A stretch of DNA of 32,000 nt from Caldivirga maquilingensis IC-167 (GCF_000018305.1 NC_009954.1:330001-362000); one strand, 5' to 3'. Positions 9,054 through 12,782 are shown, counted from the stretch's first letter. Notes: generated from the sequence alone by a model not told the origin. Program-made: numbers and translations.

Positions 9054-9159
9054 TGCCGCCTCTCCTCATTAATATAGGGTTAAGAAATCACTCAACACCT
9101 TAAGACTAAGATTGGTTTTATTTAAAATCCAAGCCTCCCCTACCTTTAAGGAGCCGTAT

Positions 9160-9777
9160 ATGTGTATTTTCGTTGACGTTGAGGGTATTGATGGGGTTGG
9201 TAAATCCACTGTAATTAGGCTTACCGCTGATGAATTAAGGAGGAGGGGTTACTTGGTTTATACCACAAGTGAACCAAGTGACTCACCCATTGGCTTATTC
9301 ATAAGGAGGAGTATACTTGAAAGTAACCTTGAGGTGGAGCCAATGGCCTTAGCGCTCCTATTTGCCGCAGATAGGGTGATTCACTATAATAGGGTTATTA
9401 AACCTAAGGTTAAGGAGGGTTACATAGTGATCACTGAGAGGTATATTGAATCCTCCGTGGCGTATCAAGGTTCCCAAGGCGTACCCGTTGAGTGGATAAT
9501 TGAAGTTAACTCAATGGTGGCTGAACCAGACCTAGTTATAGTGCTTAATGCACCATTAAACACCGTGGCGAGTAGGTTAAGCAATAGGGGAATGCTTGAG
9601 TACTTTGAGAGGAATACTGACTTCCTTAGGAGCGTCCAGGAGGTTTACCTTAGGAGGGCTAGGGAGCGTAATTACCCTGTTATTGATGCGTCAAGGGTGA
9701 TTAATAATGTTGTTAATGACGTACTTACGCTTATTGAGGATAAGGCCAAGGGTAAGTGCAAGAACTATAATCAATAA
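9160..9777 (+). CDS. tmk: Thymidylate kinase (dTMP kinase)
   Basis: FVDVEGIDGVGKST P-loop, TSEPSDSPIG, ALLFAADR and a LID-like region. I place the start at ATG 9160. The track's TTG at 9112 adds 16 non-conserved residues. Confidence 0.85.
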   Translation: MCIFVDVEGIDGVGKSTVIRLTADELRRRGYLVYTTSEPSDSPIGLFIRRSILESNLEVEPMALALLFAADRVIHYNRVIKPKVKEGYIVITERYIESSVAYQGSQGVPVEWIIEVNSMVAEPDLVIVLNAPLNTVASRLSNRGMLEYFERNTDFLRSVQEVYLRRARERNYPVIDASRVINNVVNDVLTLIEDKAKGKCKNYNQ

Positions 9778-11883
9778 CCCGTAGGTACCCTTACTTATCC
9801 CCCTCATTGAACCACCCTTACCATTATCCGTATTAATAATAGTGATGTTGGATAACACTGAGGAAATATACCTCATGTTCAGTACTATGGGTAAATTCAC
9901 CTCACTAGTCTGCTCAACCACTATATCAACCACATACGGTGATGAAGAATTAATGATCAAGCTACTTAAGTATTGATCATAAGTACCCTTGGCAATACCA
10001 TAGTATGCTTCATAGGTGTTTAATTCATTAACCAGGTTAGCCCTCTGATACTCAATACTTTGATTAATGGCTAGGCTGAAGAGTAGGTATTGGCCCGTTA
10101 AGTTAAAGTACATGCTCATTAACCTAGCTGATGCATTCTGAAGCTGGGAACTAGTTTGAATTAGACCACTGGTAATGTTAGTTAAGTTACCGTACAGTGA
10201 TGTGGGTACCGCTAACGCTAAGTTAAGCCTACCTAACGTTACGTTAAGCGTACTCGTCGTTGAGTTAAGTGTATTACTCAGGTAATTGAGGGCTATGTAA
10301 AGTGAGTATACGCTTTGATTAGTCTTAACAAGTGTATTGCTTATGTTGGTTAAGGCAATTACTAATGCAGTACCCCTGGTGTTTAATTGATACGCTAACT
10401 CGCTTAATTGCCTACTAGCCGTTAAAACACCCATCTCGGCACCATTAACATAACCCTCAAGTCTAAGCACCGTAGCCCTCATCACCTCCACATCCTTAAT
10501 TAACCTACTTAATTCACCAAGTATACTGGATTTAACTCCACCATTAATGTTAAGTGAATTAACATCATTATACAGTTTAGTTAAATTATCTTGAACATAA
10601 CCCAAGTATTGGTAGTATTCGGCTAGCGTAGTGTTAGTAGCGTTTAATATTGGTATTATCTCCATTAACGTAACGTTGTACTGCTCAATCTCCCCATAAG
10701 CATACACCACATCTGAAATAACCTGGTATTGAAGATTAATTATCTCATTATTCAACTGCGTTAAATTACTCATTATTTGCTTAAGGGAGTAGGACACCAT
10801 TGGGATAGTGGAGTTAAGCTTACTTAAAACACCGTACTCAGCCCTCAGGGCGTAATCAACCTCATATACCTGAAGCAGTAGTAGACTCTCAATAACCCTG
10901 GTGGAATTCATGTAGTACGCTGACTGCCTATACAAGGCAGCTGTGGTGTTTAGTAAGTAAGATAACTGGTATAAGTCGTTTAAGAGTATCGTGGCGTTAC
11001 TGCTTATAGGCCTTACGTAGGGAATATTATTGAATTCCGTAAGCGTGTTGTTTAATTGACCTATGGTTAACTTAAGGTAATTCAAGTAGTAGTATAAGTC
11101 TATTGATGATGTGAATATTAATGAACCCAAGTCTATTGCACTCCAATTACCTGAATTAGCCACAATGAATGTTACGTTTAAGTCAACGGAACCATTATTA
11201 GGTAATTCACCGGACCAGTACATGTAATTCCCAGTACCAATACCAGCAACACCAGTGGGTGGCGTGGAGTAGTAGTAATTAATACCATTCTGAAGCGGTA
11301 TATATGCATTATAGGTTAGTGGTAGGCCTAGTGCATTTGATGCATTAACAAGCATTATTAATTTAACACCTGAACTACCGTTTATCACTTGACTGGGGGT
11401 TGTTGAGTCATTAATGAGGTACTTAAAGTTCATTATATAATTATTCACTAATGGGTTCTGGAACTCAACGTTAAGCGACATAGTCTCAAAGGAATTAATC
11501 GTAATGTTCCAGTAAATCTCATCACCCTTCAATACATATCCACTTGAGGCATATAGTATGGATGAGTAGGGTGGTAGTCTGAAACCCACGATAACGTTTA
11601 ATGCCGTTGAGTTTTCATTAATCAGGTTAACACCATAATTAATGTAGGATTTAACACCACTACTAGTGTAGTAGTTAATGTAATTAACAGTGTATGTTAC
11701 TGATAATGATGCATCGGCCTCAACAACATGGGTAACGTAAGGCAGCATGATTATTAATAAGGCGGCGATTAACCACGACTTCCCCCCAAGTAGGGGTAGG
11801 TTAATTAATAGGGAATTAATGCCTCTGATTCTCAATAACCTCCTCAAGTCGTGAAATCTCCTCCTCAATTCTACCAACATCAT
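9691..11883 (-). CDS. Large surface glycoprotein candidate: basic N-terminus plus hydrophobic signal/anchor, beta-rich head, long helical NxS/T-rich stalk, C-terminal TM helix
   Basis: The hydrophobic segment SWLIAALLIIMLPYVTHVVEA is followed by a Tyr/Asn/Ser/Val-rich region of about 230 aa. Next comes a Leu/Asn/Ser/Thr-rich region of about 400 aa with helical periodicity. The C-terminus is GTYGLLIIVLALTLGLILNKRK. My manual count gives about 29 N-x-S/T sequons. The start codon is uncertain (11883 or an internal TTG), because the 5' end overlaps the upstream ABC gene by up to 68 nt. Confidence 0.6.
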   Translation of the reverse strand: MMLVELRRRFHDLRRLLRIRGINSLLINLPLLGGKSWLIAALLIIMLPYVTHVVEADASLSVTYTVNYINYYTSSGVKSYINYGVNLINENSTALNVIVGFRLPPYSSILYASSGYVLKGDEIYWNITINSFETMSLNVEFQNPLVNNYIMNFKYLINDSTTPSQVINGSSGVKLIMLVNASNALGLPLTYNAYIPLQNGINYYYSTPPTGVAGIGTGNYMYWSGELPNNGSVDLNVTFIVANSGNWSAIDLGSLIFTSSIDLYYYLNYLKLTIGQLNNTLTEFNNIPYVRPISSNATILLNDLYQLSYLLNTTAALYRQSAYYMNSTRVIESLLLLQVYEVDYALRAEYGVLSKLNSTIPMVSYSLKQIMSNLTQLNNEIINLQYQVISDVVYAYGEIEQYNVTLMEIIPILNATNTTLAEYYQYLGYVQDNLTKLYNDVNSLNINGGVKSSILGELSRLIKDVEVMRATVLRLEGYVNGAEMGVLTASRQLSELAYQLNTRGTALVIALTNISNTLVKTNQSVYSLYIALNYLSNTLNSTTSTLNVTLGRLNLALAVPTSLYGNLTNITSGLIQTSSQLQNASARLMSMYFNLTGQYLLFSLAINQSIEYQRANLVNELNTYEAYYGIAKGTYDQYLSSLIINSSSPYVVDIVVEQTSEVNLPIVLNMRYISSVLSNITIINTDNGKGGSMRGISKGTYGLLIIVLALTLGLILNKRKYVINNIINHP

Positions 11884-12685
11884 CAGCTAATCTACTGCGT
11901 CTCCTGGCTAATAAATCTATTTTAAGCCCCTCAACGTAATTCCTAATCATATCCCTCACGTTAACACTACTTACGTTAATCCTCTCCACTACGCCAGTCT
12001 CATAGACTCTACCACCCCTAATGTTAATTATCCTACTGCCTATCTGAGCTACGTCAGGGTTATGGGTTGCAATAACCATGGTTACCCCAATAGTCTTATT
12101 CAAAACATTAATGAGCGCCAGTAACTTTGATGCACTAACTGGGTCAAGGGCACCAGTGGGTTCATCCATTATTATTAAACTTGGATTAAGGGCAAGCGCC
12201 CTAGCTAACGCAACCCTTTGCTGCTGACCACCTGATAATTGATTTGGGTAATGATTAACATATGGCGTTAACTCAACTAACTCAAGCAAATACCTAGCCT
12301 TAGCCTCAGCCATGGCTTCATCATACATGCCACTCATTAACATGGGCATCATGACGTTTTCAAGCGCCGTTAAGTTCTGAATAAGGTTATACTGCTGAAA
12401 CAGGAAACCAACCTTCAGTAGCCTTAATTTAGCCAACTCATTCTCACTCATATCAGTGACGTCAACATCATCCAAGTAAACCCTCCCACTGGTGGGTTTA
12501 TCAAGCATACCCATTATGTTGAGCAGCGTTGATTTACCTGAGCCACTAGGGCCCATTATAATGACAACCTCACCCCTATACACGTTTAAATTAACATTAA
12601 TTAATGCGTCAACATATATGGACTCAGATATGTAGTACCTCTTACTAACGTTAATCAACTTAACCACAGCGTTGCTATTACTCAT
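11816..12685 (-). CDS. ABC transporter ATP-binding protein, MacB/LolD-like, with a C-terminal extension of about 60 aa that looks coiled-coil
   Basis: GPSGSGKSTLLNIMGMLDKPTSG (Walker A), Q-loop FQQYNL, LSGGQQQRVALARAL (signature), IIMDEPTGALD (Walker B) and an H-loop ATH. The tail is ...DLLARRRSRLADDVGRIEEEISRLEEVIENQRH. Confidence 0.9.
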   Translation of the reverse strand: MSNSNAVVKLINVSKRYYISESIYVDALINVNLNVYRGEVVIIMGPSGSGKSTLLNIMGMLDKPTSGRVYLDDVDVTDMSENELAKLRLLKVGFLFQQYNLIQNLTALENVMMPMLMSGMYDEAMAEAKARYLLELVELTPYVNHYPNQLSGGQQQRVALARALALNPSLIIMDEPTGALDPVSASKLLALINVLNKTIGVTMVIATHNPDVAQIGSRIINIRGGRVYETGVVERINVSSVNVRDMIRNYVEGLKIDLLARRRSRLADDVGRIEEEISRLEEVIENQRH

Positions 12686-12773
12686 TATAATGCATCAACG
12701 TTACCGATATTATTAACCTTTTCGTCCCACTGAACAGCCTCATAGTTGTTTGCATTAAGTAAAGGGCTAATCC

Positions 12774-12782
12774 TTAAATATA
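12774..12782 (+). promoter_or_regulatory. TATA box (TTAAATATA) for the nuoH-nuoI-zinc-finger transcription unit
   Basis: Centred 26 nt upstream of the ATG at 12804. This is consistent with a leaderless or near-leaderless archaeal transcript. Confidence 0.45.

Follow-up and report, generated by a model that had tools for sequence, protein, structure and literature searches.

A 32,000-nt stretch of the Caldivirga maquilingensis IC-167 genome (genome positions 330,001–362,000 of a single 2,077,567-bp contig, here called the window; other positions are marked as genome coordinates) encodes on its minus strand an ATP-binding cassette (ABC) ATPase of 289 amino acids (11816–12685) and, directly downstream, a putative accessory envelope glycoprotein of 730 amino acids counted from the first ATG (9691–11883). 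Together with a permease gene located elsewhere in the genome, this pair probably constitutes a split type VII ABC system related to MacB, LolCDE, and FtsEX, with a lineage-specific accessory protein. The MacB-type ABC machine as such is known; what is new here is the accessory protein and the lineage-specific variant of the machine. No description of a module composed of FtsX, ATPase, and this accessory protein was found in the literature searched.

The ATPase matched ABC_tran (E = 1.2e-33), and its nucleotide-binding domain (NBD) covers residues ~8–230. The best NCBIfam matches were LolD (6e-64), MacB (1e-60), DevA, and FtsE. All scores were under the equivalog cut-offs (e.g., 215 bits for LolD versus a cut-off of 308), indicating membership of the subfamily rather than orthology to any named system. 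Among proteins of solved structure, the closest relative was MJ0796 (4e-67), followed by 5XU1_A (the Spr0694 ATPase, E = 1e-56), MacB, and LolD. Both the NCBIfam and the PDB matches therefore bear out the assignment to the MacB/LolD/FtsE group that had been made in a preliminary description of the window, and the protein is a nucleotide-binding subunit of the kind found in type VII systems. Past the NBD, a tail of ~55 residues (residues ~235–289, 11816–11980) is rich in charged heptads. Orthologs are 281–295 aa long in Caldivirga, Thermocladium, and Vulcanisaeta, 280 aa in the g9 genomes, and 254 aa in Pyrobaculum and Thermoproteus; the length of the tail is not simply tied to the unlinking of FtsX described below.

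A genome-wide profile scan with FtsX (PF02687) and MacB_PCD (PF12704) revealed exactly two real FtsX/MacB permeases. A third, weak PF02687 match at genome position 1,523,448 runs antisense inside a glycosyltransferase gene, contains a stop, and was discarded as spurious. One of the two permeases is a lone gene of 381 aa (genome 1,459,284–1,460,426, minus strand; E = 2e-22 for PF02687 and 2e-10 for PF12704), which is 1.12 Mb away from the window and is flanked by genes resembling those of a DNA methyltransferase and a short-chain dehydrogenase. It has the four-transmembrane (4-TM) FtsX domain typical of type VII permeases, with a large, MacB-like extracytoplasmic domain of ~210 aa between TM1 and TM2. 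The protein aligns to LolC/E over the full length (76 bits versus an equivalog cut-off of 362), and its closest solved relative is 5XU1_M of the Streptococcus pneumoniae MacAB-like pump (E = 5e-12), with MacB and LolCDE next.

The other permease is part of a paralogous cluster at 802–807 kb, in which FtsX (genome 802,496–803,773) is accompanied by an 875-aa protein with CARDB and immunoglobulin (Ig) repeats (803,751–806,378) and by a divergent ATPase gene (806,466–807,182). Like the system proposed here, the cluster combines a MacB-type ATPase and FtsX with a large protein that has a signal peptide and is anchored at its C-terminus. However, the partner there is built of Ig/CARDB repeats, whereas a beta base and a helical hairpin are predicted for the 730-aa protein, and the cluster is intact there but split here. 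Homology between the two partner proteins was considered and rejected (hhalign probability 0.6%). The two FtsX proteins are also distant from each other (27% identity, E = 6e-13). Other strong ATPase matches inspected in the genome were importers of the Dpp/Opp and sulfonate types. The genome thus has two MacB-type ATPases and two FtsX permeases, one pair of which is clustered at 802–807 kb; the ATPase of the window and the permease at 1.459 Mb are therefore left unpaired.

To relate these two genes, we used their orthologs in 62 Thermoproteales genomes (FtsX, E ≤ 1e-48; ATPase, ≥48% identity). In Thermoproteaceae (Pyrobaculum- and Thermoproteus-like genera, f3), an operon contains, in this order, FtsX (~380 aa), the ATPase (254 aa), and a 600–620-aa homolog of the 730-aa protein; each overlap or gap between neighbors amounts to a few nucleotides. 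Of the 28 f3 genomes with these orthologs, 26 have FtsX and ATPase genes that abut or overlap, judged by their coordinates, and in one more the two are split by contig ends. On the other hand, in the family of Caldivirga, Thermocladium, and Vulcanisaeta (f1), the FtsX ortholog is on another contig or, in four complete genomes, 1.06–1.34 Mb off. Co-encoding of ATPase and permease, a feature of type VII systems, was thus absent from C. maquilingensis and from all genomes of these three genera, and no FtsX-type gene was found within 6 kb of the ATPase–accessory pair at the Caldivirga, Thermocladium, and Vulcanisaeta loci. In a maximum-likelihood tree of FtsX proteins, the f1 permeases, although unlinked, grouped with those of the f3 operons in one clade (support 97/97), which leaves out the other FtsX of the C. 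maquilingensis genome and the permeases of other archaea.

ATPase orthologs (48–97% identity) were detected in 50 of the 62 genomes, and FtsX and ATPase orthologs were present or absent together in 61. The sole mismatch was G028, an assembly that is 54% complete. Both genes were found in the genera g1 (6/6), g4 (4/4), g7 (18/18), g8 (8/9), and g9 (2/2), and FtsX and the ATPase in 13/13 and 12/13 genomes of g5, respectively; both were missing in g2, g3, g6, and G053. Homologs of the 730-aa protein fit this pattern wherever they could be detected, and they adjoin the ATPase in f1 and f3 loci. Within Caldivirga, the ratio of nonsynonymous to synonymous substitution rates is 0.03–0.14 for all three genes (0.03–0.09 for the ATPase and 0.11–0.14 for the 730-aa gene), and all three are under purifying selection.

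One genome shows a different split. In G050, a Pyrobaculum-group genome (g7, 96% complete), an MMPL-family gene is followed by a divergent FtsX gene that overlaps the accessory gene (L177:2031–7578), and the ATPase (L178:5146–5907; 64% identical to its P. arsenaticum ortholog) is on another contig amid unrelated genes. This is a second, independent rearrangement, in which the ATPase, and not FtsX, left the operon. The accessory gene can therefore remain coupled to either partner while all three genes are kept.

The preliminary description was right that no permease gene adjoins the ATPase. Its further suggestion, an ATPase lacking any permease, is not compatible with these data: an unlinked FtsX is present in the genome, is orthologous to the operonic FtsX of relatives, and co-occurs with the ATPase across the 62 genomes. 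That description had itself named such a co-varying permease elsewhere as the observation that would speak against it, and the gene at 1,459,284–1,460,426 is precisely of this kind. Two observations on other ORFs near FtsX genes should be mentioned here. In Vulcanisaeta, an ORF (open reading frame) of 649–660 aa is located ~1.4 kb from the lone FtsX gene (L091:8737–10686, L093:8482–10464, and L095:2788–4737). These ORFs have terminal hydrophobic segments, although not every one of the three scored at both ends; the one tested contains a Big_3_5 Ig-like domain, and BLAST found them unrelated to the 730-aa family. In Thorarchaeota (L119:2509–4149) and Thermoplasmatota (L135:2421–3680), an ORF with an N-terminal hydrophobic segment occurs near a MacB-type ATPase/FtsX pair; the Thorarchaeota ORF has a C-terminal hydrophobic segment as well.

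The 730-aa protein belongs to no Pfam or NCBIfam family, and a weak DUF11 match (E = 0.1) was dismissed for want of support. Its orthologs across the order align over the full length. An exhaustive HMMER search of 1.84 billion protein representatives detected 12 members of the family, and word-indexed searches for more distant homologs returned only the same 14 close relatives; as far as these searches reach, the family is confined to Thermoproteales. The protein contains 29 N-x-S/T sequons, and three invariant asparagines (Asn 158, 312, and 326) all lie within sequons. In addition, ten separate stretches of a 4,208-aa protein (P0022) match residues 81–160 of the 730-aa protein (E = 1e-11), indicating that part of its beta-sandwich base also occurs as a repeat unit in a giant protein.

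Both ends of the protein were analyzed for membrane association. The ORF begins with an Arg-rich N-terminus and a short hydrophobic stretch (~37–48), and a hydrophobic helix (~699–716) is found near its C-terminus. The N-terminal region (residues 1–56; 11716–11883, minus strand), which overlaps the 3′ end of the ATPase gene and has a predicted local distance difference test score (pLDDT) below 50 in the structural model, consists of the Arg-rich n-region, a core of ~12 residues (WLIAALLIIMLP), and a cleavage-type VEA/D motif. Of 18 orthologs, 13 have an n-region of 2–5 residues and a short hydrophobic stretch, directly followed by a small-x-small motif, and in Thermoproteaceae the hydrophobic stretch of ~12–14 residues directly adjoins the first beta strand. 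A long Arg-rich extension was seen in Caldivirga only and lies within the stretch that overlaps the ATPase gene. Because the n-region is short in most orthologs and the hydrophobic stretch runs into the first strand, the N-terminal segment is probably a cleavable Sec signal peptide. A Tat signal is unlikely, as the RRRF motif precedes the hydrophobic core by ~25 residues and does not occur in other genera.

At the other end, a C-terminal TM anchor (residues ~699–717; 9733–9789, minus strand) is followed by a short basic cytoplasmic tail, KRKYVINNIINHP. A hydrophobic segment was scored at this place in 14 of 17 full-length homologs, and L088, L089 (g9), and L099 fell under the threshold. The protein is thus best regarded as a putative type I membrane protein whose signal peptide is cleaved. 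The secreted, C-terminally anchored envelope protein of the preliminary description stands, but its alternative of an N-terminal segment that is kept as an anchor and mimics half of FtsX is not supported, since orthologs have probable short signal peptides and the Arg-rich extension occurs in Caldivirga only.

These features also bear on the idea of a minimal, two-gene mechanotransmission system, in which the ATPase would work directly with the 730-aa protein and the terminal hydrophobic segments of the latter would take the place of a permease. Such an arrangement might account for the overlap of the two genes in Caldivirga without an adjacent permease gene, and the Arg-rich, possibly helical N-terminal extension of Caldivirga would be cytoplasmic if it were not cleaved off. 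However, an orthologous FtsX co-varies with the pair, and Thermocladium and Vulcanisaeta, in which FtsX is equally unlinked, have ordinary short signal peptides. The hydrophobic stretch of the Thermoproteaceae proteins, with its ~12–14 residues next to the first strand, does not agree with the idea either. The cytoplasmic C-terminal tail has only ~13 residues, which leaves no room for a coupling helix, and in G050 the accessory gene has stayed with FtsX instead of the ATPase. We therefore consider this explanation extremely improbable. The broader frame of a mechanotransmission-type system acting on the envelope, as proposed in the preliminary description, is still the best one available; it is the version without a permease that has to be given up.

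Structure prediction suggested an architecture for the region between signal peptide and anchor. In the AlphaFold2 model, residues 60–262 (11098–11706, minus strand; pLDDT ~72–93) would form a beta-sandwich base, in which P105, N158, P209, W223, G245, and D262 are invariant. The best PDB fold matches of this base were mu-homology-type sandwiches with target-normalised TM-scores of 0.4–0.47, a generic resemblance. The base is followed by a long helical region (residues 263–641; 9961–11097, minus strand) with predicted helices at 263–285, 295–324, 329–442, 448–561, and 567–641. Fold matches for this region were chemoreceptor-like helical bundles of the coiled-coil type, and a profile search of PDB sequences with the 730-aa protein returned coiled-coil noise only. 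Finally, C-terminal strands and a short helix (residues 642–681; 9841–9960, minus strand), with an invariant P665, appear to lead the chain back to the base; strands 642–668 were predicted confidently, and pLDDT is 85–92 for residues 620–670.

The helical region may form a single antiparallel hairpin, with an up-arm at ~263–445, a tip at ~443–447, and a down-arm at ~446–641. This is suggested by the return of the chain to beta structure and by the lengths of the two arms, which shift together in four lineages (up/down 183/196, 187/200, 137/138, and 173/184). At 1.5 Å per residue, the hairpin would be ~27 nm long in Caldivirga and 20–28 nm across lineages. The modeled order is beta structure (60–262), helices (263–641), beta structure (642–668), and anchor. 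For comparison, membrane fusion proteins (MFPs) have a hairpin placed between strands of membrane-proximal beta domains, and their anchor is N-terminal and not, as here, C-terminal. No HlyD-family signature was detected in Pfam or NCBIfam, and no MFP was present among the 50 fold matches listed. Pfam, NCBIfam, and the fold matches showed no LytM, CHAP, NlpC/P60, or other catalytic domain such as those of FtsEX effectors; a coiled coil is present.

A reasonable scenario can be put forward for the origin and action of the split system. The ancestral layout may have been an overlapping operon of FtsX, ATPase, and accessory gene, usually facing a divergent MMPL gene, which has been kept in Pyrobaculum and Thermoproteus, and the FtsX gene may have left this operon once, in the family of Caldivirga, Thermocladium, and Vulcanisaeta. 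The accessory protein would be secreted through Sec, N-glycosylated, and held in the membrane by its single C-terminal helix, with the beta-sandwich base near the membrane and the 20–28-nm antiparallel hairpin projecting into the space under the S-layer. An ATPase dimer would drive a dimer of the unlinked FtsX, and the base of the accessory protein might dock on the extracytoplasmic domain of FtsX by analogy with MacA on MacB. The ATP-driven movement of the FtsX domain would then be passed outward to the accessory protein (mechanotransmission). As a possible outcome, a putative substrate would be moved or expelled from the outer face of the membrane or from the pseudo-periplasm, and not across the bilayer, either along or through a putative oligomer of hairpins; alternatively, the state of the accessory protein itself might be altered. 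The co-distributed MMPL transporter may feed this route or share it.

It is also possible, though we think it rather doubtful, that the same three-gene system treats the 730-aa protein as its client. The protein could be extracted, released, folded, or positioned in the manner of LolCDE, or driven into another conformation that turns on an activity in the envelope, as FtsEX does with EnvC, PcsB, and CwlO. The coupling of the accessory gene to FtsX or to the ATPase in every lineage, the long antiparallel coiled-coil region shared with FtsEX partners, and the full-length alignment of the permease to LolC/E would all suit a client. But no enzymatic or other effector domain could be detected in the 730-aa protein, and a dedicated one-to-one client is unusual for a Lol-type extractor. 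Moreover, in the predicted fold the tip of the hairpin points away from the anchor and would therefore be badly placed to enter the FtsX domain as the coiled coil of EnvC does.

Several considerations count against a split system with an adaptor-like accessory protein. The gene set, its orthology and linkage in relatives, the co-distribution, the purifying selection, and the modeled domain layout are observed, whereas the binding of the ATPase to the unlinked permease is putative. Related genomes in the co-occurrence count are not independent samples, and the pattern reflects few independent events (absence from two or three clades and from one incomplete genome), so that the co-occurrence is supportive but is not a statistical proof. 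The AlphaFold2 monomer model, which was built from 15 sequences, is of medium quality (mean pLDDT 70.5, predicted TM-score 0.46), and the proposed geometry of the hairpin derives from helix lengths and indel patterns. Furthermore, no relationship of the accessory protein to MacA/HlyD adaptors, EnvC, or SlaB was detectable in sequence or fold, and its suggested role as an adaptor is therefore drawn by analogy only.

Comparison with known systems places the proposed machine within a familiar group. The pump Spr0693-0694-0695 of S. pneumoniae (5XU1) provided the best solved match of the permease and the second-best of the ATPase, and the NBD is a separate protein in both systems. The 5XU1 system is that of a monoderm, with three genes for an NBD, a 4-TM FtsX-type permease, and an accessory protein that is reportedly membrane-anchored and contains a helical hairpin. 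However, the accessory protein described here has no HlyD/MFP domains, a different beta fold, a C-terminal instead of an N-terminal anchor, and a helical region several times longer, and the permease gene is unlinked. In the MacAB-TolC system of Escherichia coli, a MacB-type NBD is likewise found together with a permease of the FtsX fold that has a large extracytoplasmic domain. The concept invoked here is borrowed from it: mechanotransmission to an accessory protein with a hairpin that extends to the envelope layer beyond. In contrast to MacB, NBD and permease are separate polypeptides here; the envelope lacks an outer membrane and TolC, the accessory protein shows no homology to MacA, and an MMPL/RND transporter co-occurs, for which a link through the accessory protein as adaptor is a conjecture.

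LolCDE is similar in that it provides the top NCBIfam matches, namely LolD to the ATPase and LolC/E, along the entire length, to the permease. All scores are far under the equivalog cut-offs, and one permease gene is found here instead of the two of a heterodimer. Thermoproteales are not known to have LolA/B or an outer membrane. FtsEX with EnvC, PcsB, CwlO, or RipC is also similar, in that a motor is combined with an extracytoplasmic protein containing a long antiparallel coiled coil. The accessory protein differs from these partners in being membrane-anchored and in lacking a LytM, CHAP, or NlpC/P60 hydrolase domain, and the organisms have no peptidoglycan. In addition, the extracytoplasmic permease domain of ~210 aa has the size of that of MacB or LolC and is larger than the small one of FtsX in FtsEX.

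The MMPL-family (RND superfamily) protein mentioned above has 860–940 aa and is encoded by the divergent neighbor of both the f3 operon and the Vulcanisaeta ATPase–accessory pair (for example, L076:7195–9843 and L090:2313–5141). It is a single-copy protein whose distribution in the 62 genomes is the same as that of FtsX and the ATPase, being missing in g2, g3, g6, G053, and G028. The C. maquilingensis ortholog is located at genome 187,830–190,634 (minus strand), behind a gene for a small putative regulator; the 194-aa protein encoded before the Caldivirga MMPL gene has no homolog in the other loci.

SlaB, the stalk protein of the Sulfolobales S-layer, contains a signal peptide, beta-sandwich domains, a long coiled coil, and a C-terminal membrane anchor. 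The parts of the 730-aa protein follow the same order (compare bioRxiv 10.64898/2026.08.21.746120), but no sequence or fold match to SlaB was found. This resemblance is what could be said for a further explanation, namely an orphan ATPase that lacks a membrane partner and whose operon just happens to include a gene for an S-layer or stalk protein. The S-layer of Pyrobaculum, however, is built of one 292-kDa Ig-domain protein that includes the lattice, the pillar, and the anchor and rises to 37 nm above the membrane; homologs are reported in Caldivirga (bioRxiv 10.64898/2026.08.21.746120). According to the same preprint, a single colossal protein with its own pillar makes up the Thermoproteales S-layer. 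SlaB is not known to be encoded together with an ABC system.

In C. maquilingensis, the longest of all ORFs (2,941 aa; genome 3–8828, minus strand) has a signal peptide and a C-terminal anchor and is likely the homolog of the colossal Pyrobaculum protein. The 730-aa protein therefore does not qualify as the S-layer protein: the candidate is another ORF, and no SlaB was present among the top fold matches. Homologs of the 2,941-aa ORF also occur in g2 and g3, where FtsX, the ATPase, the accessory protein, and MMPL are absent; hence the module does not simply follow the S-layer, and the notion that it tracks the colossal protein was abandoned. Since ATPases of this subfamily couple to FtsX permeases and the ATPase is operonic with FtsX in relatives, we regard an orphan ATPase as very unlikely, and the coupling of such an ATPase to a surface-layer-type protein, which the preliminary description had offered as its second option, is not supported.

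The genes of the window were also analyzed for their immediate context. The database version of the 730-aa protein starts at the TTG of codon 17 and is 714 aa long. When the first ATG serves as the start, the overlap with the ATPase gene is 68 nt, and with this start the previously given ORF coordinates and overlap hold. The ORF has no in-frame ATG, GTG, or TTG between codons 17 and 46, so that the overlap is at least 20 nt whatever the true start. The neighbors had also been named correctly: the divergent upstream gene is of the NuoH type (PF00146, E = 2e-79), and the convergent downstream gene encodes thymidylate kinase (PF02223, E = 5e-45). The 3′ end of the thymidylate kinase gene (9112–9777, plus strand) shares 87 nt (9691–9777) with the 3′ end of the 730-aa gene, whose stop is at 9691. 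Convergent 3′ overlaps are also seen at other Caldivirga loci (~78–87 nt) and in Thermocladium L022 (32 nt).

A TATA-like box, TTAATAAT (12709–12716, minus strand), was read directly from the sequence 24–31 nt upstream of the ATPase ATG and is preceded by AAAAGG. An AAGGTTAATAA/AAGGTTTTTATT block is kept at equal distance in six Caldivirga and three Thermocladium loci. The box is a candidate promoter of a leaderless transcript of the ATPase and glycoprotein genes. A similarity of 21–30 nt (TAAGSATTAGCCC..TTYACT..ATGC) was noticed between the nuoH/ATPase intergenic region (12752–12780) and the sequence preceding the lone FtsX gene (genome 1,460,448–1,460,477), and a shared operator for co-regulation was considered. 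Its TATA-like part, however, is ~25 nt from the nuoH start and belongs to the promoter side of that gene; the 13-nt left half occurs at ~15 sites with at most one mismatch, several times a rough chance expectation, and appears to be generic; and the right half is poorly conserved between Caldivirga species. In our judgment, the similarity mainly reflects a generic promoter consensus that belongs to nuoH, rather than a common operator.

For annotation, the two seeming orphans that lie 1.1 Mb apart in this genome are best read as one split system, and the answer in cases of this kind comes from gene linkage in sister lineages. What is understood of MacB-type ABC systems comes almost entirely from bacteria; there, substrates or force are delivered to the periplasm, outer membrane, or cell wall. 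Few predicted helical hairpins seen beside a transporter are as long as that of the accessory protein, and the module is a candidate for the passage of material or mechanical signals across the archaeal pseudo-periplasm, which is ~37 nm wide under the colossal S-layer. More speculatively, and in our opinion unlikely, oligomers of the accessory protein might form a 20–28-nm strut or tube on the FtsX–ATPase complex, possibly also on MMPL, that reaches the underside of the S-layer canopy ~30–37 nm away. If true, this would be the first archaeal counterpart of the tripartite MacAB/AcrAB-type pumps, with a non-homologous adaptor and with the S-layer replacing the outer-membrane channel.

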